Sequence record: PQ641135
Direction: 5' to 3' (one strand)
Length of the DNA: 42,059 nucleotides
DNA from: Escherichia phage HHU8
Both the position numbers and the translations under genes were made by a program. The notes under the pieces were generated by a model that had not been told where the DNA came from, made no database searches, and saw only the letters and a program-made list of their open reading frames with translations. Within the stretch, counting starts at the first letter, position 1. The number at the start of each line of letters is the position of its first letter. Of the stretch, positions 1 to 42,059 are shown piece after piece.

Positions 1-6
1 TACTCC

Positions 7-2337
7 TTATCCAAGGTACTGCACAGAGTGTAGGCGTGCCCCGTCGGATACGTAGCAGTTCTCAATTGGTGTTGTACCAGCAGGTATAGTCACTGAAGCG
101 GTACCAACCTGCACAGCTATGGATTTATTCTGGTTGAACGTTATAGTGCAGTCGTACTGACCAGCAGTAACACCCGGAGCAATGTTGTACACAGTGCCAC
201 GGTAGTTAACGTCTAACGCGCCACCCAGCGATGCCAGTGTAATTGTAAGCGCAGTAGAATGGTTAATATCTACCAGCGTCAGAAGCGTACCTGCTGAAGA
301 TGCGTTCAACACGCAGCGCAGCACTGCACCAGCACACAACAGTGGGCGGTTACGTACCTGATTTGCTGCTGTCATACCGGGCTGTACAATCTCACGCGGA
401 ATCAAGCCAACACCAGAGTAGCCGAAGTCTGTACCAGCACCACCCATATCTGAAGTAGCCAGAATAGAGATTACCTGAAGACCAGCGTACAGCTGACACA
501 CCGTTGGTATGTACTGCGCGTCATAGTCAATAGGTATGGCTGTGCCTTGGTCTAAGCCGCCACTGAGCTGGGTACTCAGCAGGTTGCCGCTCAGCCCGAC
601 ACAGCACACAGAACCTGTACCCCACTGTGGCCCGTAGACCGCCAGCACCGTATCGTCGGTCGGGTTGTCCAGAATAACCGCGTGGTTCACACCAGTAGCA
701 GATGCCTGACGGCGGCCAGTAAGACCACCCCCGAAGCGTGAGCCACTTACGTAGTAGCTGCGGTTCAGCGAGATGTTGTCGAAGTACGTCGAGTTGGCCA
801 ACCCTGCCTTATCCCACGGCTTGTACAGCACATGCGCACACACAAGCGGGATAGCCAAGTTGCGGCCCATCTGAGCATACATCAGCGTTGATGGGTGCGC
901 ACCGTCCGGCACCTGCGTGTTAGGCGAGATGTAGCGTGCAGTCTTCTCTGCGTAGTAGTAGTTATCCACTAGGTCGCAGTTCATGGCGTGAGCCACCTCG
1001 CGCATAACCTGCACGTAGTCGCGCAGACGCTTGGACTTGGCTTCGTCAATGATTTGGTACGTAGTGATGCATGGGTTAAGGTTTGGCGTCACAAGGATTG
1101 GCACCTTACCGTACTTGCGCACTGTCTCGACGAACGTTACCACGTTGAGGCGGTACTGCTCAATGCTGTTAGCCAGCTGGCTATCGTTAATGCAGTGGTT
1201 GCAGTAAACGATATTAGCAGACGAGCTGGCCATCTTAGCTTCGAATGTAGAGCCTGAGCCATCGGTACCAGCCAACATCTGAGCCATAGTAGTACCTGAG
1301 ATGCCCTTGTTGTTGACGGTGTTAGCCATACCATAAAGGTTGGTCAACGTCAGACTGAGCACAGCTGGCTGGTTGTTTGGGTCTTGCACGCCAACGTTGA
1401 TTGTAGTGGCACCCCACATAGTGGAGTCACCGTGGCAGTCGATTACCACAGGAGTACCAGCAGCCAGTTGACGGGCGTAATAGGACGCTTTGCGGTACGT
1501 CGGATACTTGAGCTTAGCTACGTCAGCTGACACTGCGCTAACTGAGTCTGCGCTAGCAGCGCCGCCAACCAGCGTATAGCCAGTAGGAGCAGCCAATTCT
1601 TCACGCAGCGACACGTCATGCAGGGGTACCCATGCGCCAGCACTGATACCGCCTGTGGTAGCTGGAGAGCTGCCCAGCGGAACCGTCTTAGGCAATGCCC
1701 CGGCCCACTTGTACTGCTGCCCATTAGCCCGATACAGCACTGTGCGGTTAGCTACAGTGATAGTCGTGCCCGCCTCGAAAGTGCCAATCAGCACACACCC
1801 GGCTTCACGGGCGTCGCGGTAATGCAGCTCGTCCACACTGAGGTTGGTCTTAGCCAGCTCTGCCGCTACACCAGCAGCAGAATCAGTGTCTGGCAGCAGC
1901 ACCTGTGGGTTACCTTCGCTGTCGAAGCCCAGATACTTGCCAGCACGCTCAGCCACGCTAGGGATTAGCGCAATCTCTGGGTCGGAGTCCGGCACGCGAA
2001 GGGTGCGGCCACGGGCATAGTCCGTCAGGTCTGAGTATTCTTGGAAGGCATACAGCAGCTGGTCGAAGTCAGCATCCAAGTTCTGTCCGGTAAACGCAGC
2101 GCCCTGTCCAAACCTGTAGCGCAGCAGGACTGATGTCAAGCGGCGAAGCATGATGGAAGTGCCCGCGTCTGGCGCACCAACGAACGTCACAGTTTTGGCT
2201 ACTATGTCAATCGTGTAGCCAGTGGTCACAATCACGTTATTGAGGCGTACCTCGACCGAGCTGGAGTCCAGCTGGTCGAAGGTATACGTGTATGTGGTTG
2301 TGCTACCATCTGCAATATACAGGTTGTAGCTTGTCAT
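7..2337 (-). CDS. tail fiber / tailspike protein: T7 gp17-like N-terminal adaptor plus central SGNH (GDSL-type) hydrolase domain
   Basis: 776-aa ORF; ATG at 2335-2337 preceded by AGGAG; stop TAA at 7-9. The N-terminal ~150 aa resemble podovirus tail-fiber adaptor regions. Residues ~295-500 carry all four SGNH blocks: GDS (HGDSTMWG), G (NKGISGTT), xND (HCINDS), DxxH (DGAHPS). Last gene of the structural module. Confidence 0.8.
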   Translation of the reverse strand: MTSYNLYIADGSTTTYTYTFDQLDSSSVEVRLNNVIVTTGYTIDIVAKTVTFVGAPDAGTSIMLRRLTSVLLRYRFGQGAAFTGQNLDADFDQLLYAFQEYSDLTDYARGRTLRVPDSDPEIALIPSVAERAGKYLGFDSEGNPQVLLPDTDSAAGVAAELAKTNLSVDELHYRDAREAGCVLIGTFEAGTTITVANRTVLYRANGQQYKWAGALPKTVPLGSSPATTGGISAGAWVPLHDVSLREELAAPTGYTLVGGAASADSVSAVSADVAKLKYPTYRKASYYARQLAAGTPVVIDCHGDSTMWGATTINVGVQDPNNQPAVLSLTLTNLYGMANTVNNKGISGTTMAQMLAGTDGSGSTFEAKMASSSANIVYCNHCINDSQLANSIEQYRLNVVTFVETVRKYGKVPILVTPNLNPCITTYQIIDEAKSKRLRDYVQVMREVAHAMNCDLVDNYYYAEKTARYISPNTQVPDGAHPSTLMYAQMGRNLAIPLVCAHVLYKPWDKAGLANSTYFDNISLNRSYYVSGSRFGGGLTGRRQASATGVNHAVILDNPTDDTVLAVYGPQWGTGSVCCVGLSGNLLSTQLSGGLDQGTAIPIDYDAQYIPTVCQLYAGLQVISILATSDMGGAGTDFGYSGVGLIPREIVQPGMTAANQVRNRPLLCAGAVLRCVLNASSAGTLLTLVDINHSTALTITLASLGGALDVNYRGTVYNIAPGVTAGQYDCTITFNQNKSIAVQVGTASVTIPAGTTPIENCYVSDGARLHSVQYLG

Positions 2338-2342
2338 ATAAG

Positions 2343-5300
2343 TTAATCTCCTTTAACTGCTTCGGTAAGGGCGCGTACGCCGGGGACTATCGACAGCAGT
2401 GGTAGAGCCATTAGTGTGTTGCCAGTAGCCTGACGCGCATTGTTAAGAATACCCCCAGCGTCGCCTTGTAAAGCAGAACGGCCAACACCAGCGACGTTGC
2501 CAGCTACACCATACACACGGTCAATGAACAGCAGGCCCGGCGCACCAAAGCTGCGCTGCTGTCCAGTCAGGACACCAGTGAACTCAGAGGCGAAGCCGAT
2601 GGCACCGAGATAGTTCAGCGCTTGGCCAGCCAGCGCACCAATAGGTCGCTTATCATCAAAGCCTTTGCCAGAGATAACATTGTTCGCAGCTGTAGCCATC
2701 ATCGCCAGCGGATACTGGTAAGCCATAAGCGTAGCCATACCACGGGCACCCTCACGGTTCCAAGTACCAACCAGCGTCTTGTTGTGCGTAGCCGCGACGA
2801 ATCGACGGAACGTAAACAGGAACTTACCGAGGGTACTGAACTCAGCAAATGCAGGCAGCTCACCTACGCGAGCGCGAACAATAGCGTCATCCATGGCGTT
2901 AATCATGACGATGCGGGAGCGATTGAACACCCCTTCATCCCAAGCGTCAGGCTTGGTGCCATGGGTACCAACCTGCTTGCGAATGTCAGCCAGCAGTGCG
3001 TCATTGGCACCGTAGGTTTTCATGGCTGCAATAGCCTTGGCATCACCTTCGGCTGCCTTACGCAGCGTCTGCATCACGAGCGCAGCATTGGTTCGAGTCT
3101 GGTGGAAGTGGATGTACTTCTGCATGTTGATGAACATCGTAGCATCACGCAGGTGTTCCATACGCATGACCCACGGAGACTTATCCGCAGAGAACATGTC
3201 GTCATAGTGCTGCATGATTGGGCGCATACGAATATCACTCGCTACAGCCGCAGTCAGCGCTTCCTCGGCATCCAGAGCCAATTGACGACCTTCCTTAGTA
3301 GACACCCTCATTTGCTTAAATAGTGCGCGTGCTTCGGGAATTGTACGCATCATGGCGCGAAATGTATTGACTGCCCCGAAACGTTGCATCATCGTGCCGT
3401 ATTCCACCAACTGCCACAGGCCAGATGCAGCCAGACCAGTAGCCTGAGTCAGCGCAGAGAGCTGGCGCATGAACTCCGGCATTTCCTCACCAACAGGAGC
3501 ACCTTGGTAGTAAGCCATGATGTTGTCGTATTGGTCGAGAGCCTTGCGACGTGCCGTGCTATCCGGGATGGATTTGGCCAGAGCCTCACGAGCGGCGGCG
3601 CGTTCAGCGTCAGTACCCAGCCCAGCCTCGTGCAGAGCCAGTCGCCCGGTAATGCGGCGGTTGTAGCTGTCCATCATGCTGGTGATACTGTCATCGAACA
3701 GGTCGCGCACCTGCAAGTTCGGGCCAAGCGTGTGCATCATGTCGATGTTGATACGGCTCTTGAGCATCGACGGTCGGCCAGCGTCCGAGCCAGACTCACG
3801 AAGGAGTGCGGAAGCACGGGCTTTGGCAGCCTCGTCGAGACCTTTCGAGTTCTCAATGATTTCGAGCAATTCATCACGACCTTCCTTGTTGATAATCATG
3901 CCGGAGTTGTCGATACCATAACCCTTACGACGAGCACGCTCAACCATGGCATGGGCGATTACGTTGGCAGTCGGGCGGTCAGTACCGATACCACGCTGCA
4001 CCGCAGTCGTCATCTGCTTCATGAATGGCTTCTTGCCGAGCAACTGCTCAGCCTGCTCAATCTTGGTCACGTTCATCCGGCGCGGGTAGTAGTACGGGTT
4101 CTTGTCTACAAAGCCCGGTTCCACCATGCCCTTCGCTTCCAGCTCACGGCCCACGGCGCGGGAGTATTCCCCCAGTCGGTCGGCGGCAGCGGCCACGTTA
4201 GCGTTCGCGCCACGGAACTCCTTGTCAATCATACGCTTGTCCAGCTCGAGACGAACAGCAGCTTCGAACTCCTGCTGCGCCCGGCGATATCCCACCGGGT
4301 CACGGAAGCGACGTAAGTTGCTCCAGCCATCAGAGTTCAGTGCGTTACGCAGAGTGTCCTCGTACTGGTTCAACAGCACACCAAAGCGAGCCTGAGTCTC
4401 GCGCTGGATTGCAGCAGCAGAGGTCATGTTAGGGTTCAGTGGGTCGTCCAGCAATCGCCCGGCGAGAGCGCTGGCTTCATCAGAATGTTGGCTGAATGAT
4501 TTGAACAGCGACCATTCTAGGAACGGACGTTTCGGGTTGGTCTGCTCCCCACGGCGAGCAAGGTCGAGACCGCGCTGGGCAGTGGCCCGGATGGATTCAG
4601 GCACTTCATCGACCACAGCAGCACCTCGCGGCCCGGCACCGAGTGACATGGCCAATGGCGAGGTCATGTTGTTCGGGTCAAACTGCGGCGGGTTGTTCGG
4701 GTCAATACCGTTGCGACGCTGCATCTCCGCTGCAAATTCCTCCGGCGACAGGTCGGCCAGCGAGCGCTGTACCGGGGCCGGGCGATAGAATGCAGTGGTG
4801 GCCGCCCCGTGCAGGGCAGCCGCGAAGATGATTTCGTTCTGAGACACAGGGCGTGCTTCGTTACCCACCGCTGTCATAGTGGCAGCAGTTGAAGCTGCAC
4901 CGACAGCGGCGGTTCCGAGGCGACCTAATTTCAGGGCAGTGCCTGCTCCCATCGAGAGCAGGTCGGTGGCGAGGTACAGCGGGTCAGCGAATTGCAGAAC
5001 CGCGTTCATCACCGGGGCAGTGTGAGCCAACTGAGTACGCTCGCGCATCTCTTGGAGCTGCTGCGTACGCCAGTTGAACTCATCCATAGATTTGGATTTA
5101 AACAGGAAAGTTCTATCGTCTTCACCAATCGGGAACTGAACCTGCTGCAACGCCTCGTTGGGCTTGAAGTCAGGGTCAGCCTGAAAGGTAGGCTTGTTGA
5201 AGGCGGCATCAAAGAGCTGAGTGGTGTCCCAGTTCTTCACAGAAGCGCTCAACGCCGTGGCAATTGGAGTGGCTTCCAGTTCCTGCATCTTTTCGAACTG

Positions 5301-14181: not shown

Positions 14182-15747
14182 TTAAATCTGTGCGATGTTA
14201 GGCGCTACATCAACTGCGCCCGGCTGTACGCCAGCGGCGGCAGCGGCTGCATTGTCGATGGCCTGACCTTCTTGGGCCAAGTCTTGTGGCGACTTACGGT
14301 AGTCGTCCAGCGCAACACCATTGGAGGCAAAGATAACCTCAAGGACTTTCTGAGGGTCGATGGTGTTAGCAACGCCATTAATATTCTGGACAGCAACCAT
14401 TGCTGCCTGCGAGTCGGATAGCGCTCTGATAAGCGTCTCAGCTTCAATGCTTCGACCGAGGGCATCCAAGCCTGCTTCGACTTGAAGCGACAGGATGTTG
14501 CCGACGATATCTGGTACGGTGGACTCGTCAATCTCCGCGAGCAGGACATACGCCAGAGGAATTTGGAGGGTCTTAGCCTGCATTGAGTACGGCCCACCCA
14601 GCCCACGCTCGGCGCTGGTTGCTACCTGCTGCACTTCGGTGGCGGTGGTACGTTCGGAGTCACGGAACTCGCCAGTGTACATGAAGGCTTGCGCCAGTCG
14701 CTGCACAATCTGGTTGATTTCGTCACGGGCCTGTTGAACTTTCTGGTAATCCCCGACCTCCAGCCCCGACAACGTGGTGCCGTTCTGGAGTGGAATGACC
14801 TGACCAGTCTCTGCGCTCTCAATGTCATCGACGTTGCCGCCAGAACCAGTGAGCATCCACAGCACGCGCAACGCTTCCTGCATGTACAGAGCAGAATGCT
14901 CAGACAGGAGCGACAGACGTGCGAAATCCCCAGCGTGGTCTTCGACAATCCCGCGACCGTAATGCTCGCCAGACTTCAAAGACCACACTGGGAATAACCA
15001 TGGGCAGACTTTTTCAGGGTAGTAATCTTTACCGGGGGTATAGACGCAGCCTTGGTAGTTGCCAATCTGCTGCGTTACTTCGTAGCCGTAGTTGCCACTG
15101 TCCTTCTGAACGCGAAGGACACGGGTGTACAGCCACACGCGTTTGTTCCCACCGCAGCGGAAGCCTTTGGAGTTCAGCTCATTCTGAAAATCCTTCGGCA
15201 GAGAATCCCACTGGATGCGCTCCTTGATGACGGCATCCACCACAACGCCACGACCGTCGCGCTGCACCACGAAGGATTCCAATCCGTACACTCGGTACGA
15301 ACCAGTCTCCATATCGCGGTACAGCGCGGCGTTTCCGGTCACAGCTTGCTGGGCAATGCACTGGAGCAGGTCAGCGTAGCCGCCATTCTCTTTGGCTTTG
15401 TCTACGATGGCCTTCTCAATAGTGATAAGCGCCTGATTAACTTGTGACATAGACTGCCGCTGTTGGTCAGACACCTTGTTTAATTTCAGCTTCACGAATC
15501 GTGCGGAAGCCGGGAACAGGAACTCACCTAACCTAGCGGTCAGGTTGTTGACGAGCAGAGCGCCGACAGACTGGTAATCACGAGTAATCTGCTGGCGGTT
15601 CATGTCGTCCACATCACTGCGGTCATACTCGCTCACCAGCTTAGCCAGTGTGTAGCGGCTGTATTCCCGCGCTTTCGTGACAACGTTGCTATCCCGGTAC
15701 TTCTGCCACAGAGACTCATAGCTGACGTTCTGCGCGTCTTGAGTCAT
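14182..15747 (-). CDS. portal (head-tail connector) protein, T7 gp8-like
   Basis: 521-aa ORF at the head of the structural module; ATG at 15745-15747. Size and position match the podovirus portal. Confidence 0.75.
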   Translation of the reverse strand: MTQDAQNVSYESLWQKYRDSNVVTKAREYSRYTLAKLVSEYDRSDVDDMNRQQITRDYQSVGALLVNNLTARLGEFLFPASARFVKLKLNKVSDQQRQSMSQVNQALITIEKAIVDKAKENGGYADLLQCIAQQAVTGNAALYRDMETGSYRVYGLESFVVQRDGRGVVVDAVIKERIQWDSLPKDFQNELNSKGFRCGGNKRVWLYTRVLRVQKDSGNYGYEVTQQIGNYQGCVYTPGKDYYPEKVCPWLFPVWSLKSGEHYGRGIVEDHAGDFARLSLLSEHSALYMQEALRVLWMLTGSGGNVDDIESAETGQVIPLQNGTTLSGLEVGDYQKVQQARDEINQIVQRLAQAFMYTGEFRDSERTTATEVQQVATSAERGLGGPYSMQAKTLQIPLAYVLLAEIDESTVPDIVGNILSLQVEAGLDALGRSIEAETLIRALSDSQAAMVAVQNINGVANTIDPQKVLEVIFASNGVALDDYRKSPQDLAQEGQAIDNAAAAAAGVQPGAVDVAPNIAQI

Positions 15748-15749: not shown

Positions 15750-16010
15750 TTAGCTCCCAATGCCGAGGTTACTTGCCACACCAGTTCCGGTACGGCGGCG
15801 GCGACCACCCAGTGTGTCAGAGGCCGAGCTTACTTGGCCACCTGCCTGAATGGTTGGGGTGTTCTCACCAGCGAGGTCGGCTGCAAGGTTAGCTTGCATG
15901 GTTTCTGCCTTGACCTGCGCCGGGTCAGTCTTGATAGTGTACTGCGGCTTTTGGCTACCCAGTCCGAAGACGGAGCCAATGCCCTTGAATACTTTGCCTA
16001 CGCTACCCAT
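15750..16010 (-). CDS. small Gly-rich protein, possible virion protein
   Basis: 86-aa ORF; ATG at 16008-16010 preceded by GGAGAA; Gly-rich N-terminus (GSVGKVFKGIGSVFGLGS); immediately upstream of the portal gene. Confidence 0.4.
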   Translation of the reverse strand: MGSVGKVFKGIGSVFGLGSQKPQYTIKTDPAQVKAETMQANLAADLAGENTPTIQAGGQVSSASDTLGGRRRRTGTGVASNLGIGS

Positions 16011-16429
16011 TACGGTTTCTCCAAATCAATGAAGCGGTACTCCTGAACGTAAGGCCGCACCATATGGGAGTAACCGCACCAACGCACACCCGCTGAACGG
16101 GCCACGTCTTTGAGTACACGGAGGATGGCACGCATCACTCCACGGTTTCTGTACTGGGGCCAGACGTATGAGGCCATAACGACCACCATCTCACCCACAT
16201 GAATATCGAATAACCTGCCGATGTGAGCAACAGCCATGAGGCTGCCGTCATCGTCAGTGATGTAAACGTCAACGCAGCCGGAGGCGGTGGCCTCGTACAT
16301 GCTGTCAACAATCACATCGGGAGATAGGTCTGACCATGGCCGCTCAGCTTGAATGCCCTCGGCCACAGCACGGCGAATGTCGAGTGGCATCGTCGTGTGT
16401 GATGTATTTCCCATAGTAGACACTTTCAT
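16010..16429 (-). CDS. putative GNAT-family N-acetyltransferase
   Basis: 139-aa ORF; contains an R-x-x-G-x-G/A acetyl-CoA-binding-like motif (RNRGVMRAIL) followed by an amphipathic helix, as in GNAT motif A. Its ATG (16427-16429) lies inside a copy of the 21-bp ATGAAAGTGTCTA motif. Confidence 0.4.
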   Translation of the reverse strand: MKVSTMGNTSHTTMPLDIRRAVAEGIQAERPWSDLSPDVIVDSMYEATASGCVDVYITDDDGSLMAVAHIGRLFDIHVGEMVVVMASYVWPQYRNRGVMRAILRVLKDVARSAGVRWCGYSHMVRPYVQEYRFIDLEKP

Positions 16430-16430
16430 T

Positions 16431-16616
16431 TCAAATCACTCTTTCTCTGATGAAATCCAGAACGTCTTGCTTACCAGCCTCTCTGTTAATCAGAGGTAGG
16501 TTAGTGTCGGGAGTGACTGTCTTACCTACCTGAGACCATGTACCGAAGTGCTTCTCCAGTAGAGCTATCTGTGCTTTAGTGAACTGAACTCTTTCAAGCG
16601 TAGATTCTTTACCCAT
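16431..16616 (-). CDS. hypothetical protein
   Basis: 61 aa from the ATG at 16614-16616, which is preceded by GAGAGGA; the longer track ORF would begin at a TTG. Confidence 0.4.
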   Translation of the reverse strand: MGKESTLERVQFTKAQIALLEKHFGTWSQVGKTVTPDTNLPLINREAGKQDVLDFIRERVI

Positions 16617-16677: not shown

Positions 16678-16698
16678 TATCACTATAGACACTTTCAT
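16678..16698 (+). promoter_or_regulatory. second copy of the 21-bp promoter-like element (plus strand TATCACTATAGACACTTTCAT) with an adjacent 14-bp palindrome, between the RNA polymerase gene and the late genes
   Basis: Plus strand 16670-16683 GTGATATCTATCAC is a palindrome; 16678-16698 is identical to the minus-strand sequence at 37488-37508. Lies in the 110-nt gap after the RNA polymerase stop. Orientation of function is ambiguous. Confidence 0.4.
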
Positions 16699-16726: not shown

Positions 16727-19159
16727 TCAGCAGAAAAACTTGCTTGATTGTTTCACAAGTTGGATATCCAGATTGCCACGCTCAGGTGCAACAGCATTGT
16801 ATCGTACAGCAAGTTGTTGAATCGGGTCATGTTGCTCATACATCTGCACGAACTTTTCACGAATGACCTTGTGGAGTAACCCGGCATGAGCTGCTGCCAC
16901 CCCGAACGAATCGTGGATAGACACCATGTACACCCCGTTATTCCACATCTCCCACAACACCTTCATCATGTGGCTGGCATCCATAGCGTGTACGAAATTC
17001 GGAGCAATCGCAGCGGCACACTTCCTGCCATCAGGCTTGTCCAGATACTCGCGCAGCTTAATGCTGTGGATACCCATGAGGTTGATGTTATTGAGCATCG
17101 TCTCCTTGCTGGCTTGATACAGGTTCACCACTCGCAGCCCTGACGGTGCAATGATTTCCACGTACTCACCGTTGGCTGCCGCCTCTACCGCGATAGCCTG
17201 CAACCATGCCATCAGCTCTGCCGCCTTCGGCACAACGCGAGGGATTGCATTCCACATGAACTCTGCGATGAACTGCGCACACTCCAGTAGGCTCTTGCCG
17301 TCCGGCAGCTTGACCCGGTTCTCACGCAGGTACAGGCAGTAGTAGTCCACCATCCCGTGTCGGGTTGCCCCGTACACGTATGTCATCACTGGCTTCTTAG
17401 CCATCGCCCGGACAATGCCGATTGAAACAAGCCACGAACCCATCTGCGTCGGTGACTGCGCTTCACTATCTTCAAGAGCCTGCATCGCCGCTGCTGCCGT
17501 CTTGAGATATATGTCTGCTTTTCTTCCCACGCTATTGATAAGATTGACAGCAGCACCTCCAACTTCATCTCGTAGCATCGCACTGAGGTGCTGGAGTCCT
17601 GAACAGGTAGCATCCCATTGCGTGACCACTCGGCAGGGATAAGTCTCAGGATTTCCTGAGTCGATAGCGCGAATGAGTTCAACAGAGGCAGCCCACGCGC
17701 TGATAGGGCTATCGGCCTCTGACCAGAACGAATCAAATGCCTCTGGAAGACGGCACGCCTCACGTAGTCGGGGGAGTGTCTTGTCCGTCCACGCCGCCCG
17801 GTCGTCGAAGTCTGTTGCGTCGTAGCCGAAGCAATTCGCAACATGAACCTTGAGCCAGAACAGCCCCTCAGTTCCGAGAGCCACTGGTTCCGCAAGCTCA
17901 AGCAGCGCTCGCACCGCGTCGATAGACTGAGGATTAAGGGTCGAAGAATAATAAATTCGGCCCCGCGTATCGGCGTAAGTCGGGAGATAAATCCTATCGT
18001 ACTGCGCATACCTGTCTGCCTCTTTGACTGCACCATTCAGCGCCAGCATCTGTGACGTGAACTTACGCAACTCATTGTAATACAAGCGAGTCTTCACCTT
18101 GTACTCATGAGCTTCGGCATCCATCTGCTGCTGCATCTCTGGTGGGAACTTGCTGATGTACTGTGCAAAGCTCACACCAGCCGGGATGGTAAACGGAAGT
18201 GTAGGTTCACGAGGCGGCACAGGCAGCCCCATAACGCCTGTACGGTTCGTTCGCAGGAACTCCAGTACCATTGGGTTAACTCGGTACGGAACGCTGCTGA
18301 GCATCATACACGGCTCTATAACGGGGGTAGGGTCAACGTTCAATGCACGATACCCTTTATGGTTCATGCGGCTCATTACCCGGTACATCGCTGCCTGCCC
18401 ATCTGAATGCCACATACCGCTGCGACCGTTAGGTGCAATCTGCTTCGGCGGGATAATCAGTGGTGGGCAGCACATGCCATCAGCACGCGGCATGTCCAAC
18501 CAGTCATTCATCGTAGCCAGCACATCCTCGTGCAATGCAAAGTGTGCCGTACCGCGCTGGCGCTGGTTGCCTCCGACACGAATCGTGGACACCAGACCAG
18601 TTGGCTCAACGCACTTCATCATAAGCTTGCCAATGGTAATCAGCGCACGCTGCGGCAGCACATCAATCTCCACCCCAACGTTCGCCGCCGACGCACGCGC
18701 TTTGTTGTAGACGTGGTTCGCTGACTTCGAGCGAGACTTCTTCACGTCCTGCTTAACGCGCTCCATGTACGCCGCCTGCTGCGGCCCGGTCTGCTTCGCC
18801 CGGAGGTACACCACCTCAGCCATCAGTGCCTTGCCCATGCTCTTGAGCAGACTCAGTACCGCCTGCTCCGACGCAGCACCGGACACCGCCATGCTCAGTG
18901 CAAGAGAGGCACACGCTTTGGTGCCAATCTCACGCATGTACGTCCGGTACTGCGCACCATACCCACGGGTCGTTTCGCTCAGGGTTTCTTGCATCGCAGC
19001 TTCGACCAGAGGATAAGCCTCAACCATCATACGCTGGAGCAACGGCACCGACCCGGCGCGGCCACTGGCCATCGCCTCTTTGATATTATCCAGCCAGCCC
19101 TCGCGGTGTCTGGCTCGCGCTTCTTCTTCAAGTCGAATCTGCTCTGCAAGTAAATCCAC
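16727..19159 (-). CDS. single-subunit DNA-dependent RNA polymerase (T7 RNAP family)
   Basis: 810-aa ORF with hallmark motifs: DATCSGLQH (motif A), VMTYVYGAT (motif B region), HDSFG (motif C). Start is GTG at 19157-19159, 5 nt after a perfect AAGGAG. Confidence 0.9.
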   Translation of the reverse strand: MDLLAEQIRLEEEARARHREGWLDNIKEAMASGRAGSVPLLQRMMVEAYPLVEAAMQETLSETTRGYGAQYRTYMREIGTKACASLALSMAVSGAASEQAVLSLLKSMGKALMAEVVYLRAKQTGPQQAAYMERVKQDVKKSRSKSANHVYNKARASAANVGVEIDVLPQRALITIGKLMMKCVEPTGLVSTIRVGGNQRQRGTAHFALHEDVLATMNDWLDMPRADGMCCPPLIIPPKQIAPNGRSGMWHSDGQAAMYRVMSRMNHKGYRALNVDPTPVIEPCMMLSSVPYRVNPMVLEFLRTNRTGVMGLPVPPREPTLPFTIPAGVSFAQYISKFPPEMQQQMDAEAHEYKVKTRLYYNELRKFTSQMLALNGAVKEADRYAQYDRIYLPTYADTRGRIYYSSTLNPQSIDAVRALLELAEPVALGTEGLFWLKVHVANCFGYDATDFDDRAAWTDKTLPRLREACRLPEAFDSFWSEADSPISAWAASVELIRAIDSGNPETYPCRVVTQWDATCSGLQHLSAMLRDEVGGAAVNLINSVGRKADIYLKTAAAAMQALEDSEAQSPTQMGSWLVSIGIVRAMAKKPVMTYVYGATRHGMVDYYCLYLRENRVKLPDGKSLLECAQFIAEFMWNAIPRVVPKAAELMAWLQAIAVEAAANGEYVEIIAPSGLRVVNLYQASKETMLNNINLMGIHSIKLREYLDKPDGRKCAAAIAPNFVHAMDASHMMKVLWEMWNNGVYMVSIHDSFGVAAAHAGLLHKVIREKFVQMYEQHDPIQQLAVRYNAVAPERGNLDIQLVKQSSKFFC

Positions 19160-34530: not shown

Positions 34531-34535
34531 AGGTA

Positions 34536-34937: not shown

Positions 34938-34948
34938 CAGGACAACGC

Positions 34949-35230: not shown

Positions 35231-35253
35231 GGATGATACTCCGTAATGGTTGG

Positions 35254-35292
35254 GGCAGAATTGCCATAAAGCCAGCGCCTTGACACTGGCTT
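35254..35292 (-). promoter_or_regulatory. intergenic hairpin plus GCAATTCTGCC box (unit 4)
   Basis: Box at 35254-35265, hairpin AAGCCAG-N10-CTGGCTT at 35269-35292; ATG of the downstream gene at 35230. Confidence 0.45.
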
Positions 35293-35306
35293 GAGTCAAT
35301 CCCGGC

Positions 35307-35501: not shown

Positions 35502-35560
35502 GTTTACACTCCAGTTGTGTGGTTACAATTCAGGCCACTCAGTGAATGGCCTGTCAGTAA

Positions 35561-36088: not shown

Positions 36089-36163
36089 GATAGTCACCTT
36101 GTCGGTTGGTTGATTTCACATAGCGCCCCGCAGGACGCTATAGGCTATCAGCCACGGCGTTTG

Positions 36164-36556
36164 CTACGCCTCTACTACCCAAAATTGCGCACCATCGTAA
36201 GTCCAAGCAGTGTACTGCCCGGCTTCCATCTCGGCCTCAGTCTTACTGACTAACTTGCCAGCAGGCTTGCCCGGACATGGTGAATCCATGAAGATTGCAT
36301 CATCATCATCAGTCACTACCATGATGCAGTCCTGTTCAAGAGCCTTACAGAACAGCTTAATAGCCTGCCTGATTTCATAGATTCCATCGACAGGAAATAC
36401 CATGCTCAACTCGTACTGATTGTCGAACTTGCCTGTCAGTGTGACCGGAATCACTCCGAACATATCCTGCACCGTTCGCAGTGCCTTGCAATGAAGCGCC
36501 AGATTAACACACTCAGCATTGTTCTGACGATATGCGCTTGCATAGATACGGTACAT
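36164..36556 (-). CDS. hypothetical protein, first early gene downstream of the sigma70-type promoters
   Basis: 130-aa ORF; ATG at 36554-36556 with GGAGAA upstream; lies ~450 nt downstream of the tandem promoters. Confidence 0.5.
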   Translation of the reverse strand: MYRIYASAYRQNNAECVNLALHCKALRTVQDMFGVIPVTLTGKFDNQYELSMVFPVDGIYEIRQAIKLFCKALEQDCIMVVTDDDDAIFMDSPCPGKPAGKLVSKTEAEMEAGQYTAWTYDGAQFWVVEA

Positions 36557-37014
36557 AGTTATTTCTCCAGTTGTTGGCTATTTTCAGGTGGATAGTGAAC
36601 CCATTGTGACGCGCCGTACAGTCTGCACTCGTTGGCATTGATTGGCTTGTCGGATTCACTACCCTGAAAAATCGCCCCGCCCATTTCGCGCTGTGAGTAT
36701 TGTCTTCACTCACTCTCAGGAGTCTTCCAGCAGTCCGGCTCACCGTCACCAGCTTATGCCTACCTACCCGCTATACTCCGCGCCTTATAAGACGTTTGGG
36801 ATTGTGCTGATACTGCGCTGCGTCTATCGCGCTTCTCCGTTCCCTTGCATCGGGCGCTACCCCTACGGCGTTAGCATTGTTGCGATACCGTTGCCTTTCG
36901 GCGATGCCTCACCCAGTTCCAACCTGCGGCGGATACCCAGTGAGCCGTGACACTACGCGGCCAGTTTGCGTTCACTCAGAGCAGGATGCTTTCCATCCTT
37001 TCAACTCGGTGCTG

Positions 37015-37043
37015 ATTACAACACAGTGTATTCAGCTTGTCAA
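37015..37043 (-). promoter_or_regulatory. sigma70-type early promoter P3 (TTGACA - 17 bp - TGTAAT)
   Basis: Minus strand TTGACA (37038-37043), 17-nt spacer, TGTAAT (37015-37020) with TGT upstream; third tandem copy. Confidence 0.6.
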
Positions 37044-37083
37044 CTACTTTTTACTTCTGACTGACTGGCTTACTGCCTGTCAA

Positions 37084-37112
37084 TCTGGTGTGTATTACAG
37101 CATACTCGTTCC
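37084..37112 (-). promoter_or_regulatory. sigma70-type early promoter P2 (TTGACA - 17 bp - TGTAAT)
   Basis: Minus strand TTGACA (37107-37112), 17-nt spacer, TGTAAT (37084-37089) with TGC upstream; same architecture as P1. Confidence 0.6.
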
Positions 37113-37229
37113 ATCCTGTCAACCGATTTAATCAGCGCCCGTTCTGAGATGATTAGACCGTACCAGTTTGCCTGCGTGGGTTTTAACGTCTTTATCCATG
37201 ACTGTTTGGCTTGCTGGTTGACTGGAAGC

Positions 37230-37258
37230 ATTACAGCATAGTGAGTTTGCCTTGTCAA
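37230..37258 (-). promoter_or_regulatory. sigma70-type early promoter P1 (TTGACA - 17 bp - TGTAAT)
   Basis: On the minus strand: TTGACA (plus coordinates 37253-37258), exact 17-nt spacer, TGTAAT (37230-37235), with TGC immediately upstream of the -10 hexamer (extended -10-like). Points toward the early genes. Confidence 0.6.
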
Positions 37259-37330
37259 CACACCAGATTGTTAAAGAGCAGTGTTACCGTTCAATCTTGT
37301 CTACTGGGCTAGTGCCTTTCGACGTGATGA

Positions 37331-37360
37331 ATTACAGCACATAACCAAAACAGTTTGCAA
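37331..37360 (-). promoter_or_regulatory. possible weaker sigma70-type promoter P4 (TTGCAA - 18 bp - TGTAAT)
   Basis: Minus strand TTGCAA (37355-37360), 18-nt spacer, TGTAAT (37331-37336). Confidence 0.35.
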
Positions 37361-37381
37361 GTATTATTTTCAAGAAAAGTG

Positions 37382-37479
37382 ATAAGTTACTGTAATCATT
37401 GAGATTAAAGTTTGATTGGATAATCACAACACTGGATAGAATACCGTTATCAGATAGGTCATAAGTTACTGTAATCATT
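37382..37479. repeat. AT-rich region with a 19-bp perfect direct repeat (ATAAGTTACTGTAATCATT x2)
   Basis: Identical 19-mers at 37382-37400 and 37461-37479 within an AT-rich block between the T-depleted tract and the sigma70 promoters. Confidence 0.5.
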
Positions 37480-37487
37480 AGATAATT

Positions 37488-37508
37488 ATGAAAGTGTCTA
37501 TAGTGATA
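37488..37508 (-). promoter_or_regulatory. promoter-like element with T7-class core (minus strand reads TATCACTATAGACACTTTCAT), upstream of the sigma70 promoters
   Basis: Minus strand carries ...GATACTATATCACTATAG|ACAC...; the core TCACTATAG matches the conserved -8..+1 of T7/SP6/K11-group promoters. It sits just upstream of the tandem early promoters, comparable to the T7 left-end phage promoter. Perfect 21-bp inverted copy of 16678-16698. Confidence 0.4.
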
Positions 37509-37519
37509 TAGTATCGCTA

Positions 37520-37960
37520 GATACGCAGAGCGAGCGCGGCGCAGCCGAAACAAGCGAGCGCGGAACGTCAACGGATGGAATCCGACAGGATGACAGGCGG
37601 CAGACAGTGAACGCAGTAGGACAGTAGACAGAGTGTAACAGCAGGTAGCAGAGCATGACGCGCAGAGCTGGAGGCGCAGACAGTAGACCAGCAGACAGGA
37701 CAGCACCACGCAGCACCACGCCGCGCCACGAAAAGAGACAGATACCCGCCCGACCACAGGCAGCACGCAGCACCGCGCAGCCAGCGCAGAGCGTCCCCAT
37801 AGGACAGCACCGCACAGCACAGCCAGCAGGACAGCACCGCGCCGAGTGATGAAACGCGACACGCACGAGCTATACCGCACGCAGGCAATCCTCTTGACGC
37901 GCCGCGCAGCGCACGCGAGCAATTATCGCGCACGTCGCGAGGCTAAACCGCGCACACGCT
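37520..37960. repeat. thymine-depleted, short-repeat-rich non-coding tract (candidate terminal-repeat / concatemer-junction region)
   Basis: About 440 bp in which the plus strand is nearly devoid of T and is built from degenerate short repeats (AGGACAGCACC at 37697, 37800 and 37828; GACAGTAGAC at 37625 and 37681; many ACGCAG/CAGCAC units). No credible ORF; lies between the last gene (endolysin) and the early promoters. Confidence 0.5.
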
Positions 37961-38072
37961 ATGGGGGCACGCGCGGTCATTTGGGTCGAGGGAGGGGCAC
38001 GTACAAATAGTCAATTTTCAAGCCGGGGTATTGCACCCACGGCCTGTTCATTGCATCAGCTTTTGGATACCC

Positions 38073-38609
38073 CTACAGCGTCGCACAGTAAGCGCTACAG
38101 CGTTTTGCACGGGCAACCAAGGCATCCCTATAGCGAACCACTGTCGGGGCTGTAGAAGCCTTTAGGAACGCAATACGAAGGTCACAGATGGCTGCTGCTG
38201 CGGAGTGAGGTTCCAGACGTTTGGCTGCTGCCACGGTAGCAGGGCCAATAACCCCGTCTTGTGCAACACCGCATACCCGCTGTAGAGCTTTCGCAGCACG
38301 GGAGACGCCGGAGTTGACGCCGTAATCAAACACGGCACATGCAATCGCAGGGTGAAGCTCGTCACCTCTGATGGGGCTGTAGTAGTCCCGGCGATAGATT
38401 GCCTCGGCTTGCTCTTTGGTGAGCTGCTTGATAGGCACACACACAGTGCCGCCAAGCCCAGTAGGGACACCACAAGCTCTACCATCCAGCTTCCCATCAC
38501 GAGCGTCACTAATTCCATGGTTGGTCTCCCCTCCAGTGTCACCGGGCAGCTTGGTGTACCCACCCTCGGCCAGCCCGGTGAACTTCATACAGATTTCAAA
38601 GTTAGTCAT
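38073..38609 (-). CDS. endolysin: glycoside hydrolase family 108-like N-terminal domain plus PG_binding_3-like C-terminal domain
   Basis: 178-aa ORF; N-terminal GLAEGGYTKLPGDTGGETNHGI fits the GH108 lysozyme motif pattern (EGGY...D.GG.T..GI), and the C-terminal GVAQDGVIGPATVAAAKR fits a peptidoglycan-binding domain. No signal peptide, so holin-dependent. ATG at 38607-38609 overlaps the upstream stop (TAATG). Confidence 0.75.
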   Translation of the reverse strand: MTNFEICMKFTGLAEGGYTKLPGDTGGETNHGISDARDGKLDGRACGVPTGLGGTVCVPIKQLTKEQAEAIYRRDYYSPIRGDELHPAIACAVFDYGVNSGVSRAAKALQRVCGVAQDGVIGPATVAAAKRLEPHSAAAAICDLRIAFLKASTAPTVVRYRDALVARAKRCSAYCATL

Positions 38610-39449: not shown

Positions 39450-39458
39450 ATTGACCCC

Positions 39459-39644
39459 TTAGTTGGTCAGTGCAGTGAGGGCGTTCGACACGCGGGTAAC
39501 AAAGGTCTGGTAGTAAGCCACCAGCGCAGTGTTGGTCGTGTCGAAGTAACCGTCCTCAACCCAAACGTTCAGATACTTGGCCGCCATATTACAGGCTGCC
39601 ACGAACTCCGCACGTTCAGCAGCGGTAGAGTCAACAAGTGCCAT
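39459..39644 (-). CDS. hypothetical protein
   Basis: 61-aa ORF; ATG at 39642-39644 with AAGGAGA upstream; no hydrophobic segment. Confidence 0.4.
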   Translation of the reverse strand: MALVDSTAAERAEFVAACNMAAKYLNVWVEDGYFDTTNTALVAYYQTFVTRVSNALTALTN

Positions 39645-39826
39645 AAAGATTCTCCTTAAGAGAGTGTGATGCCAGTGATTGCACCAGCGGAAATAGCGAA
39701 GGTCGCGGTGTCGGTGTACGTGCCAGTGACCGGGATGGTCAGTGCATCACCGTTATCCACCATAGCCACAGTAGCGCCGTCCTCCAGCAGAGCGGAACCT
39801 TCCGGCGTACCCGCGTAACCAGCAGC

Positions 39827-39991
39827 CTAAAGTACCACCACCAGATTTGTGATGGCAGTTTCAATGTCAGCAGCCTGAGCTGCCGTCACTGTACGGGTAC
39901 CATTGATGAAGCGTTGAGTCACGTTAGCTGCGATACCACAGCGATAACCAAGCTCGTAACGCTGAGCATCAGTGATGGTGGTGATGGACAT
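39827..39991 (-). CDS. hypothetical small protein; reading frame continues 57 codons past its TAG stop
   Basis: 54 aa from the ATG at 39989-39991 (GGAGAA upstream; ATG overlaps the terminase stop as TAATG). Its TAG at 39827-39829 is followed in frame by an open stretch down to TAA at 39656-39658. Confidence 0.35.
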   Translation of the reverse strand: MSITTITDAQRYELGYRCGIAANVTQRFINGTRTVTAAQAADIETAITNLVVVL

Positions 39992-41751
39992 TATTTGATT
40001 CTCCGTCGCGTGCCGCGCACAGGTTTGTGGCTGCGCCACTTCGAGTCGTCGTAACCCATCGGGTTGGCAAGGAACTCTCGTGCAGCAGCAGTCTCACGCT
40101 TGGCGGCTTCTTCATGTTCGTCCTGCTGTAGCACCTCAGCGTGCAGGTACACGGCAGCAGACAGGGTTTCAATGCGGTCGTCGTGGGGGATGGATTGACG
40201 GTCTTGTGTCAGGTTCTGGAGCTGCCAGAACAGACTGAACTCACGACCACCGTTATTCATGCCCCGGCACAGCCGCAGGTCTTCTTCAACAACACACCAA
40301 TGCACAACGACACGGTGGCGCTGCATGATTGGGCCGAGGCGGTTGATGATACGCACCTCTTTCTGACCGGACGAGTACACGCCATCACAGCCAATGGTCA
40401 AGCTCTGACGCTTAACCTCACCTCGGTACATGTTGGTCACGGTGCCGTGGCCCATGTTATCCTCAATGACCAGTCGCTTAACCCCGGTTTCAGCAAGCCA
40501 CTCTACCGCCGCCTTGATGTTTTCCTCCGTCTGACCGCCGTGGTAGACGTGCATACCGATGACGTGGATAAACGGGCCGACAGAAGCGGTGGCAATGATA
40601 ACTGATTCGTCCGACCCACCACCAGCAGGGTCAAGAAACGCCGAGGTATTTTCGAATGGTACATAAGTGTCCGAGAAATCAGCAGCCAAGAATAGCTGAG
40701 CGCGAGCCAGTGGGAAATCCAATGGCAGCTCGGCGGCATGGCGCGGGTGGTTCGACCAATGCAGAACCTCCGGCGCAGACTGCGTAGAGCCGTGGAAGAA
40801 GATTAAGTCTTTGAGATGTAACGTCTGTTTGAGCGCATCCGACAGCGACGTGTCCAGCATGAACTGCAACTGGAAGCCTGCCTGCTGGTAGTCTCGTTCG
40901 TTCTGCAACTGCTTCTCTTCGGAGTAGCGTTGCGGGTCAGTCTGTGCGCCACGGTTCCCAAGGATACCGTACCCAGTACGCAGTTCAGGGTGGCCATCCA
41001 TCTTCTGCTTAATCCACGGGGCCAGACAGCCGCCGTAGCGTTCTTCTTCCTCAACCGTTGGGAAACGACCGGGCCAGATGCGAACGTCGAAGCCACGCTG
41101 CGGGAGCGTGTTGTAGATGGAGTCCTGAGTCTGCGGTGTACCAAGGTACAGAATCTCTGCACCATCATTGGCGATAGCCGCGAACTCTTTGGTCAGAGTG
41201 TTGATACGGGCGCGGTTGGCAGGAGAGCTACCGTTACTGGTAGTCTCCACGTCATCGGCAATCAACAGCGATACGTGGTTCCCCTGCAACTGGCCGAAGA
41301 TACCAACTGCTTTGACAGAGGGCTGTTTGTCAGGAATACGAAATGCGTGGTGTACGTCGAAACCGTCCGTATAGGAGGTACGTGCGCCAGCGCGAGTTTC
41401 AGGGCGCAGCCATTCCAGTCTGTCCCATTGCATAATGGCAGACACGATGGCGTGCGAGAGCGTACCCGCATAGTCGTCAGAACCAGATACCAGCAGCACA
41501 GTGGCGTTAGGCATCTGGATGAACTCATACAGAGCACGGGCAATGCCGATGGTGGACTTAGCCTCACCGCGCTGAGCCATGACGCACTTGTTCTTTAGCG
41601 TCCGGTCGGCCATGTAGCGGCCAATATCGAGCTGCATTTCAGTGAGGTCAAAGCCCAGCCATGCGAAGTAGTCATGCAGGAACAGCGGGAAGTTGTTCTC
41701 GTAGTGGGCGCGAACAATTCCTGCCATCACCATGCGGCGTTGTAAATCCAT
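39991..41751 (-). CDS. terminase large subunit (T7 gp19-like)
   Basis: 586-aa ORF, the same length as T7 gp19; N-terminal region resembles T7-group terminases; follows the small-terminase gene with a TAATG overlap. Confidence 0.85.
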   Translation of the reverse strand: MDLQRRMVMAGIVRAHYENNFPLFLHDYFAWLGFDLTEMQLDIGRYMADRTLKNKCVMAQRGEAKSTIGIARALYEFIQMPNATVLLVSGSDDYAGTLSHAIVSAIMQWDRLEWLRPETRAGARTSYTDGFDVHHAFRIPDKQPSVKAVGIFGQLQGNHVSLLIADDVETTSNGSSPANRARINTLTKEFAAIANDGAEILYLGTPQTQDSIYNTLPQRGFDVRIWPGRFPTVEEEERYGGCLAPWIKQKMDGHPELRTGYGILGNRGAQTDPQRYSEEKQLQNERDYQQAGFQLQFMLDTSLSDALKQTLHLKDLIFFHGSTQSAPEVLHWSNHPRHAAELPLDFPLARAQLFLAADFSDTYVPFENTSAFLDPAGGGSDESVIIATASVGPFIHVIGMHVYHGGQTEENIKAAVEWLAETGVKRLVIEDNMGHGTVTNMYRGEVKRQSLTIGCDGVYSSGQKEVRIINRLGPIMQRHRVVVHWCVVEEDLRLCRGMNNGGREFSLFWQLQNLTQDRQSIPHDDRIETLSAAVYLHAEVLQQDEHEEAAKRETAAAREFLANPMGYDDSKWRSHKPVRGTRRRIK

Positions 41752-42056
41752 TAGTGCATCACCCCGCTATCTTCTGCAATCTTGTCGATTGCTGCTTTCA
41801 AGATTGACTTGCGCTCTGCTTCCGTGCGCTCGCCGTCGAGTTGTGCCTGCAATGCCAGCAGGTCGTCAGCATCACCTTTGTCGGCTGCTATGCCGTTATC
41901 CTTTAGGAACTGTCGAAGCACAGATAACTCAGCAGCAGGCATTGGGGCGATGATGTTGCCATCATCGTCCTTTTTCATGGATGCATGAAGCCGTTCTGTG
42001 AGGTATTCGACCAGCGCCCTATGCAGGGCGTCGAGTTCCTTGTTAGTGCCAGCCAT
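41751..42056 (-). CDS. terminase small subunit (T7 gp18-like)
   Basis: 101-aa ORF with ATG at 42054-42056, charged helical protein directly upstream of the large terminase. Its Shine-Dalgarno (GGAG) lies at window positions 2-5, i.e. across the circular junction. Confidence 0.55.
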   Translation of the reverse strand: MAGTNKELDALHRALVEYLTERLHASMKKDDDGNIIAPMPAAELSVLRQFLKDNGIAADKGDADDLLALQAQLDGERTEAERKSILKAAIDKIAEDSGVMH

Positions 42057-42059
42057 GAT

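Follow-up and report, generated by a model that had tools for sequence, protein, structure and literature searches.

Contiguity of the record ends and predicted position of the physical ends in the genome of Escherichia phage HHU8

Gene content of the window

The window analysed here is the complete 42,059-nt record of Escherichia phage HHU8 (PQ641135). All long ORFs are on one strand (minus), and the window is the reverse complement of the coding orientation. The genes that frame the window ends and the main non-coding interval, together with the RNA polymerase gene, are as follows.

7..2337, minus strand: tail fibre/tailspike, 776 aa, the last structural gene (Pfam: Phage_T7_tail N-terminal adaptor, Tail_spike_N and an SGNH/GDSL esterase domain)
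16727..19159: RNA polymerase gene (aligns to the annotated RNA polymerase genes of relatives)
36164..36556, minus strand: SAM lyase (anti-restriction SAMase), the first early gene and the lower limit of the non-coding interval (PF23780, E 2.2e-25; SAMase annotation in relatives)
38073..38609, minus strand: endolysin (GH108), the last gene before the genome right end (PF05838; position as for the J8-65 endolysin, 40114..40650)
39991..41751, minus strand: large terminase (TerL), 586 aa, T7 gp19 type (PF22530, E 3.8e-23; aligns to the annotated TerL of relatives)
41751..42056, minus strand: small terminase (TerS), 101 aa, T7 gp18 family (PF11123, E 1.6e-17)

All 19 of the 19 near matches were bonnellviruses, and identity to members of the genus ranged from 82 to 97%. 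Sequence comparison thus places the window in Bonnellvirus (Autographiviridae), with a phiKMV-type gene order. No tRNA genes were found in the window.

The tailspike has been replaced by one of the SGNH-esterase type. Its best protein match was the tail spike of Pectobacterium phage PP99 (41.6% over residues 277-772), while a protein-based IMG/VR search returned only two partial relatives (L007 and L008) and an exact-sequence look-up of the protein returned no record. A search of the phage collection with the tail-fibre DNA in distant mode gave no match, so that the tail-fibre side of the join described below is uncheckable in GenBank phages.

Contiguity of the window ends

The two window ends carry the parts of a single short spacer between the tail-fibre and TerS genes.

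1..6, minus strand: first 6 nt (GGAGTA) of the 9-nt tail-fibre/TerS spacer, a Shine-Dalgarno sequence for TerS cut off from its gene by the window boundary
42057..42059, minus strand: last 3 nt (ATC) of the same spacer, directly 5' of the TerS ATG

The original prediction had placed a Shine-Dalgarno sequence across the boundary, and every coordinate given for it was confirmed in the sequence. Positions 1-9 read TACTCCTTA on the plus strand and TAA GGAGTA on the minus strand, with the stop of the tail-fibre ORF at 7-9. Positions 42054-42059 read CATGAT on the plus strand and ATC ATG on the minus strand, with the ATG of the TerS ORF at 42054-42056. When the ends are joined, the minus strand runs from TTGGATAAGGAGTA directly into ATCATGGCTGGC; the order on this coding strand is the tail-fibre TAA, GGAGTA, the join, ATC and the TerS ATG, with GGAG 5 nt 5' of the ATG. 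The prediction had concluded from this arrangement that the ends are contiguous. The conclusion was right, but the Shine-Dalgarno sequence is too weak to carry it by itself: similar 4-mers are found at 32 of the 56 crude ORF starts and turn up at 12% of random positions as well, and a Shine-Dalgarno sequence straddling the join is, taken alone, weak evidence for contiguity.

The comparative evidence, by contrast, is far beyond chance. The 17-mer TAAGGAGTAATCATGGC, rebuilt from the joined ends, is present uninterrupted within the records of J8-65 and Lidtsur, and the 9-nt spacer GGAGTAATC is the same in the window, J8-65, Lidtsur and a contig from the Logan assemblies. A spacer of 9 nt was also found in glasur and RZ4, while other relatives (Kc261, LF82-23, BHUENT7) have 10-11 nt. 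The layout of stop codon, Shine-Dalgarno sequence and ATG is common to Kc261, glasur, RZ4, BHUENT7, Ec1-ASingh, SS-2025 and LF82-23. The spacer length shows that joining the ends neither loses nor duplicates a base. The window ends have no exact overlap in the range of 8-2000 nt, and the exact 41-nt pattern spanning the join had no match in IMG/VR.

Collinearity extends this agreement to the whole genome. Eight bonnellvirus genomes whose records begin elsewhere are collinear with the window; in ordered blastn blocks against four full genomes (J8-65, Kc261, glasur and RZ4) it was fully collinear and only the rotation differed. BHUENT7, megetsur, mellemsur and LF82-23 were 93-97% identical to the window over 24.6 kb (coverage 95-99%).

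Contiguity is most directly shown by the Logan contig DRR868800_6892 (43,228 bp), since tail fibre and TerS adjoin in its middle. This independent public assembly was reached by a look-up of the TerS protein sequence and encodes a TerS identical to that of the window. The joined window ends aligned to it in one HSP of 5,064 nt at 91.1% identity, and at least 80 nt around the join, which sits mid-contig, were identical. The contig carries a 776-aa SGNH-type tail fibre (94.5% identical), the 9-nt spacer and then TerS. It was opened elsewhere, in the early/replication region, and is about 91% identical to the window overall; it differs further in that about 270 nt, with a 58-aa ORF, are inserted downstream of the first early promoter, and in a strongly divergent interior of the repeat region described below, which it holds once (collapsed), as the window does. 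Taken together, the junction kept in relatives, the genome collinearity and the Logan contig spanning the join confirm, at the level of sequence comparison, that the window ends are adjacent in the real phage DNA and that the record is a complete T7-like (Bonnellvirus) genome.

The left-end non-coding region and the predicted terminal repeat

The original prediction had also placed the physical ends inside 36557-38072, the non-coding stretch between the endolysin gene and the first early gene. Along the coding strand, this part of the genome runs endolysin, hairpin, predicted repeat, A-poor arrays, a 21-nt element containing CACTATAG, an AT-rich block, four promoters, a 440-nt leader and SAM lyase.

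38022..38043, minus strand: terminator-like stem-loop 3' of the endolysin gene, just before the predicted repeat (dG -21 kcal/mol, z -4.5, 0 of 200 shuffles as stable)
37756..37989, minus strand: predicted direct terminal repeat (DTR) of about 234 bp, one collapsed copy (homology to the J8-65 259-bp repeat)
37520..37755, minus strand: conserved GGGTATCTGTCTCTTTT motif, then G/C/T-rich imperfect repeats, nearly A-free on the coding strand (repeat family D7)
37488..37508, minus strand: 21-nt element TATCACTATAGACACTTTCAT (repeat I2; 100% complementary to the inverted copy at 16678-16698)
37360-37331, 37259-37230, 37123-37094 and 37044-37015, minus strand: four predicted early sigma-70-like promoters (TTGACA/TTGCAA, N17-18, TGnTGTAAT)

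The stem-loop is kept in nine of 11 aligned relatives. In the segment made up of the GGGTATCTGTCTCTTTT motif and the A-poor repeats, conservation is 0.97 at 37745-37731 and AT skew reaches 0.70; it corresponds to the repeat arrays that flank the terminal repeat in T7. The four promoters form repeat family D2 and are conserved in relatives, and host promoters are annotated at the same place in LIMEzero. A consensus promoter scan returned 0 sites, because the -10 hexamer TGTAAT fails the scan rule. An Rfam scan of 36300-38200 gave nothing credible.

The position of the ends was approached through J8-65 (KM247287), the only record in the genus with an annotated DTR. An exact repeat_region of 259 bp is given at each end of that record; it begins 72 nt past the stop of the endolysin gene and is placed, to our knowledge, where all T7-like and phiKMV-like phages have theirs. 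Its homologue maps to window positions 37989-37756 and is single-copy in the window, in all other collapsed records and in the Logan contig. By this homology, which is the sole support for the predicted interval, the virion left end is predicted at 37989 (the T of TCGACCC, minus strand) and the right end at 37756, after the second repeat copy. The motif at the left boundary, CCTCCC/TCGACCC, is invariant in 11 sequences and occurs in LIMEzero, which belongs to another genus, as CCTCCCTCGAC. The predicted boundaries may be off by a few to tens of nucleotides; the right one rests on a gapped alignment, because J8-65 and the window share only about 77% identity in the repeat interior, which is strongly divergent in the Logan contig. 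The conservation profile of the non-coding alignment is too flat to set the boundaries independently, since most relatives are close.

Other possible sources for the ends were considered and rejected. The records of usur, glasur, RZ4, BHUENT7, Kc261 and Lidtsur break off at differing non-coding places, and these points were not accepted as physical ends; that of glasur begins exactly at the 21-nt repeat, where the assembly graph probably broke. The LIMEzero record has no terminal repeat and was cut simply after the last ORF. None of the papers on J8-65, the '-sur' phages from Denmark, Kc261 or LF82 describes how ends were determined.

Ends that lie within 36557-38072 but away from the positions homologous to J8-65, with a longer, shorter or shifted repeat (for example extending to about 37520 through the A-poor arrays), seem unlikely, though they are the most serious of the alternatives. 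The poor conservation of the repeat interior would allow such a shift, the method behind the J8-65 ends is unpublished, and repeat lengths vary in the Autographiviridae (180-183 bp in przondoviruses and 222 bp in fHe-Kpn01). Against it stand the invariant left-boundary motif, retained even in LIMEzero, and the highly conserved block GGGTATCTGTCTCTTTT directly after the predicted right boundary. We keep the J8-65-homologous positions, and infer that the real ends are about 4 kb from the window ends, within the 1.5 kb of non-coding sequence that separates the endolysin gene from SAM lyase.

The 21-nt element sits where T7 has its phiOL promoter. Inverted copies lie just after the RNA polymerase gene, at 16678-16698 and, in part, at about 16410-16431. 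The core of the element contains TAGACACTTTCAT in the window, BHUENT7, Ec1-ASingh and SS-2025, TAGTCACTTTCAT in glasur and RZ4, TAGTAGCTTTCAT in Kc261 and CAGTTACTTTCAT in J8-65. The copies co-vary between genomes although one is non-coding and the others overlap start codons, so that a shared trans-acting reader or gene conversion is needed. As a speculation that we would not favour, the three copies might be one functional set, for example phage-polymerase promoters or site-specific nick sites, with the left-end copy acting in replication initiation or concatemer-junction processing like T7 phiOL/phiOR. This reading leaves the verdict on the window ends unaffected.

Opening of the record, packaging and comparison with known phages

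In T7-like phages, replication yields head-to-tail concatemers in which a single copy of the terminal repeat separates neighbouring units. A T7-type terminase (TerS and TerL) cuts these at fixed sites and the repeat is duplicated, so that each end of the linear virion DNA carries a direct terminal repeat. Linear virion DNA with direct terminal repeats is thus expected from the T7-type terminase of this phage, and we infer a DTR packaging mode. In assembly, reads from the two repeat copies would be indistinguishable, and the assembler would close a circle with one copy. That circle would then have been opened, by software or by hand, beside the small terminase gene, at a point 3 nt ahead of the TerS ATG. 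This opening would make the window ends artificial: the TerS start codon would have been parted from the spacer GGAGTAATC, which holds the ribosome-binding site of the gene. The DTRs of T7-like phages are often lost in short-read assemblies (PMC10438801). We consider it highly probable that the record as a whole is explained in this way, as a unit-length bonnellvirus genome collapsed to a circle and opened at TerS, with its true ends in the non-coding stretch.

That the record was rotated to the small terminase, as originally predicted, is very likely, if not provable from the sequence. It was opened within the 9-nt spacer, 3 nt 5' of the TerS ATG, and a random cut would fall in this spacer with a chance of 9/42059 (about 2e-4). 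Beginning genome records with the terminase is documented practice; LF82-23, too, was cut at this gene, at the TerS ATG. These observations also make it improbable that the ends are contiguous while the cut point is an assembler accident and not a deliberate rotation. An accident would suit a cut that falls 3 nt before the ATG in a window that is antisense, and other records of the genus do begin arbitrarily. For the same reason (the 3-nt offset and the antisense orientation), it is unproven that a standard 'start at terminase' tool was the cause. A point chosen on purpose at the small terminase remains our reading.

A genome that is truly permuted and terminally redundant, packaged by headful without unique ends and correctly shown as a circular map, is very improbable. 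Most bonnellvirus records do start at differing, arbitrary points, several are labelled circular, and only one has annotated terminal repeats. The varied starts, however, are explained by assembler behaviour: the records of RZ4 and BHUENT7 hold 121-nt overlaps that are assembler leftovers, and trimming by SPAdes is on record. In addition, both terminase subunits belong to the T7 gp18/gp19 type, with TerL matching only the T7-type domain, J8-65 has an exact, fixed 259-bp DTR, and the left end, with its repeat, repeat arrays and early promoters, resembles that of T7. The TerL domain and the fixed repeats of J8-65 thus speak, indirectly, against headful packaging, for which a lack of fixed ends and a terminase of P22, T4 or SPP1 type would be expected.

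That the window boundaries are the true molecular ends, with virion DNA beginning at TerS and ending after the tail fibre, is next to impossible: only the linear form of the record with those start and end points speaks for it, whereas joining the ends rebuilds the conserved 17-mer and the TerS ribosome-binding site, an independent contig covers the join in its interior and so refutes these ends to the extent that sequence alone can, the window ends carry no terminal repeat, J8-65, whose terminal repeats are annotated, has the junction at 36.3 kb of 41 kb, and a cut there would part TerS from its Shine-Dalgarno sequence.

For the collapsed and rotated circle, several practical points follow. 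Positions 42059 and 1 should be treated as neighbours in annotation and comparison, and the window ends should not be taken as packaging sites. The virion DNA would be the window plus one further repeat copy of about 234 bp, or about 42.3 kb. True ends, early promoters, and origin or packaging signals are to be sought in the region of about 37000-38070. Among public bonnellvirus records, most are collapsed circles opened at arbitrary points, and two still contain the assembler overlap; J8-65 is therefore the single source for the ends in the genus. A rotated circular assembly cut before the small terminase is a common, ordinary artefact, and the value of the finding is one of bookkeeping, with no new biology from the finding itself.

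A close relative is J8-65 (KM247287 / NC_025445), the type species of Bonnellvirus. Its gene order from SAM lyase to endolysin is that of the window, DNA identity is 80-88% over most of the genome, and the two share an identical junction of tailspike stop, spacer and TerS ATG and the same non-coding left-end layout. The J8-65 record is written from the physical left end with its repeat at both ends; the window differs in having one repeat copy, a rotation of about 4 kb and the reverse-complement orientation. The tailspike of J8-65 is a colanidase and that of the window an SGNH-esterase, without DNA similarity between the two.

LF82-23 (PV660458), a bonnellvirus labelled circular, has the same permutation as the window. 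Its record opens with the TerS ATG and closes with a 10-nt spacer behind the stop codon of the tailspike gene, and it is 93% identical to the window over 24.6 kb. It was made by SPAdes circularisation followed by Pharokka --dnapler, and it was cut exactly at the ATG in the coding orientation, whereas the window was cut 3 nt earlier and is antisense. Unlike in the window, the tailspike is a colanidase.

The left end of T7 consists of the terminal repeat, short repeat arrays, a phage promoter, strong host promoters, a leader and an anti-restriction gene. The order predicted from sequence in the window matches that of T7 and T3 (in T7, phiOL, the A1-A3 promoters and gene 0.3). T3 and the window share a SAM lyase as the first gene, and the terminase subunits of the window are T7-type. 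The window differs from T7 in its phiKMV-like order, with the RNA polymerase gene mid-genome and the terminase and lysis genes last, and has no detectable DNA similarity to it.

Continuity of the record across its ends

All coordinates given in the original prediction for the two ends of the Escherichia phage HHU8 record were correct on re-reading of the window, and its gene names were borne out by Pfam. The plus strand starts with TACTCCTTATCC and finishes with GCCAGCCATGAT, while all long ORFs are carried on the minus strand. On that strand, the join of position 42059 to position 1 was rebuilt as ...CAGTACCTTGGATAA GGAGTA|ATC ATGGCTGGCACT.... The genes nearest the join and those flanking the long non-coding stretch are as follows.

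7..2337, minus strand: tail-fibre ORF, TAA stop at 9-7; 776-aa product with a T7-tail-fibre N-terminal domain, Tail_spike_N and a GDSL/SGNH esterase domain (Pfam)
36164..36556, minus strand: SAM lyase ORF (Pfam)
38073..38609, minus strand: GH108 endolysin ORF (Pfam)
41751..42056, minus strand: small terminase (TerS) ORF, ATG start at 42056-42054; 101-aa product of the T7 gp18 small-terminase family PF11123 (Pfam), followed by a gene with the T7 large-terminase nuclease domain PF22530 (Pfam)

The ends had been proposed to be contiguous in the real molecule because a Shine-Dalgarno sequence straddles the join. Standing alone this argument is weak, since SD-like 4-mers occur within -16..-4 of 12% of random positions, against 32 of 56 crudely called ORF starts; the conclusion was nevertheless upheld by comparative evidence. 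In the records of the bonnellviruses J8-65 (KM247287) and Lidtsur, which are uncut here, the stretch from the tailspike stop through the spacer to the TerS start is TAAGGAGTAATCATGGC, identical to the rebuilt join. Kc261, glasur, RZ4, BHUENT7, Ec1-ASingh, SS-2025 and LF82-23 share this layout, their spacers differing slightly. No overlap was found between the window ends, and the spacer is 9 nt long in the joined window as in J8-65, Lidtsur, glasur and RZ4; hence no base was lost or duplicated at the join.

The DNA of the tail-fibre gene had no match in a phage collection of 50,697 records, and the GenBank relatives therefore vouch only for the TerS side and the spacer. An exact look-up of the TerS protein returned one public contig, DRR868800_6892 of the Logan assemblies (43,228 bp), in which a 776-aa tail fibre of identical domain make-up, a 9-nt spacer and an identical TerS follow one another in the interior of the record, at approximately 14 kb. 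When joined, the window ends matched this contig in one HSP of 5,064 nt (91.1%), with at least 80 identical nucleotides around the join; 43 of 776 residues differ between the two tail fibres. The tail fibre and TerS of this phage thus lie side by side in a real assembly with a different opening point. That the window boundaries are genuine molecular ends is opposed both by this spanning contig and by the conservation of the junction in relatives and, to the extent that sequence alone allows, is excluded. The observation is confirmed and its interpretation supported. Contiguity of this kind is a routine property of how genomes of phages with direct terminal repeats (DTRs) are assembled and deposited.

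Genome layout and the choice of start point

The 19 near matches from the phage collection all belong to Bonnellvirus, which places the window in this genus; the closest (BHUENT7, megetsur, mellemsur and LF82-23) were 93-97% identical over 24.6 kb. Using blastn against the full J8-65, Kc261, glasur and RZ4 records, ordered collinear blocks were obtained across the whole window, with only start point and strand differing. On the coding strand the order runs from SAM lyase through early genes, primase/helicase, DNA polymerase, RNA polymerase, portal and scaffold to capsid, tail tube, internal virion proteins, tailspike, TerS, the large terminase subunit, small genes and endolysin, which is a phiKMV-type order. 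Given this order and the full-length collinearity, the window is a complete unit genome.

The tailspike module has been exchanged. DNA homology to all bonnellviruses stops at approximately 2499, within the C-terminal end of the internal virion protein gene, and returns at the tail-fibre stop codon. The best match of the catalytic part is the tail spike of Pectobacterium phage PP99 (41.6%), and the SGNH/GDSL esterase domain of the window contrasts with a colanidase in relatives, suggesting a different host receptor.

The record was also said to have been rotated to the small terminase. The cut falls within the 9-nt spacer, 3 nt upstream of the TerS ATG, for which the probability under random cutting is approximately 2e-4. 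The LF82-23 record (PV660458), labelled circular, opens on the TerS ATG and closes 10 nt past the tailspike stop; it was built from a SPAdes contig whose k-mer overlap its authors trimmed to make a circle, and Pharokka was run with the --dnapler option. The window has the same permutation, reverse-complemented. From the cut position and this permutation, deliberate rotation to TerS is very likely, although sequence cannot prove it. Other records start elsewhere. In the RZ4 (LC778449) and BHUENT7 (PV874197) records the two ends still share an exact 121-nt overlap, which was rejected as a terminal repeat because the two records end at unrelated places, making it an assembler leftover. The glasur record (MN850583) begins at the exact first base of a 21-nt element described below, probably through a break in the assembly graph at this repeat.

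Physical ends and the predicted terminal repeat

T7-like phages have DTRs, which short-read assemblies often lose (PMC10438801). Among bonnellvirus records, repeats are annotated in J8-65 alone; these are exact, 259 bp long (1-259 and 40723-40981) and begin 72 nt past the endolysin stop. The J8-65 paper gives no method for determining the ends. The J8-65 junction, taken as the right end followed by the unique sequence of the left, was aligned with the window and a further nine relatives. The predicted repeat starts at 37989, the T of TCGACCC, directly after an invariant CCTCCC, and ends at approximately 37756, giving a length of approximately 234 bp. The motif CCTCCCTCGAC also occurs at the record start of LIMEzero, a phage of a different genus, and in the Logan contig, and the block GGGTATCTGTCTCTTTT adjoining the predicted right boundary is the best-conserved stretch nearby (score 0.97). 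Since both the collapsed smaasur record (93% identical to J8-65) and the Logan contig pass colinearly across the J8-65 junction and hold the repeat once, collapsed circles are taken to correspond to the concatemer junction.

By homology to J8-65, the interval of 36557-38072 originally predicted for the physical ends is right and can be narrowed to approximately 37756-37989. The boundaries here may differ from those of J8-65, as the repeat interior is only about 77% identical between J8-65 and the window and is divergent in the Logan contig. A genome truly permuted by headful packaging is unlikely: this is opposed by the T7-type terminase (Pfam) and the exact repeats of J8-65, and the scattered record starts across the genus are put down to assembly practice, as the 121-nt overlaps illustrate. 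For Kc261 (MW250275), the paper gives 42,203 bp and the record 42,432 bp, a 229-bp difference near the predicted repeat length; no duplicated block was found by blastn of the window against the full record. For annotators, positions 42059 and 1 should be treated as adjacent, with the real ends placed near 37.8-38.0 kb.

The non-coding stretch around the predicted ends

Read along the coding strand from 38072 to 36557, the stretch contains the following features.

38043-38022, minus strand: stable, conserved hairpin (dG -21 kcal/mol, z -4.5)
37989-37756, minus strand: predicted terminal repeat, by homology to J8-65
37520-37735, minus strand: imperfect GCTG/GTCC-type repeats, rich in G, C and T, coding strand nearly without A
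37508-37488, minus strand: 21-nt element TATCACTATAGACACTTTCAT
Immediately to the right of the 21-nt element: AT-rich block (32% GC) with two AATGATTACAGTAACTTAT copies
37373-37400 and 37452-37479: direct copies of AATGATTACAGTAACTTAT(C/G)AC, 79 nt apart
37015-37360, minus strand: four conserved tandem early promoter-like sites, TTGACA/TTGCAA-N17-18-TGnTGTAAT
Downstream of these sites, minus strand: leader of approximately 440 nt, followed by the SAM lyase gene

The hairpin lies 30 nt past the endolysin stop and approximately 30 nt ahead of the predicted genome end, and is partly deleted in J8-65 and smaasur. The block at 37520-37735, between the predicted repeat and the 21-nt element, has an AT skew of up to 0.70 on the plus strand and a GC content of 63-66%, and varies in length among relatives. 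Both AATGATTACAGTAACTTAT(C/G)AC copies are highly conserved in relatives (0.97), and as a pair they look like iterons or an origin. The consensus promoter scan reported none of the four early promoter-like sites, because their -10 hexamer has a G at position 2. In the Logan contig the interior of the predicted repeat is strongly divergent with both boundaries retained, and an extra insert of approximately 270 nt with a 58-aa ORF, absent from the window, lies between the first and second early promoters (14540-14830).

The 21-nt element contains the T7/SP6 promoter core CACTATAG. Besides the copy near the predicted left end, two oppositely oriented copies lie just after the RNA polymerase gene: a perfect inverted copy directly after it at 16678-16698 on the plus strand (chance approximately 4e-4) and a partial copy at approximately 16410-16431, at the start of ORF 16010..16429. 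Each of these two reads ATGAAAGTGTCTA and sits at the start codon of a small ORF. Across eight bonnellvirus genomes, the copies are the same variant within a genome and different between genomes (core GACA, GTCA, GTAG or GTTA). Possible explanations for the element are a phage promoter, a nick site or gene conversion.

The order of elements in this non-coding stretch is that of the T7/T3 left end, and LIMEzero has annotated host promoters at the place matching the four promoter-like sites of the window.
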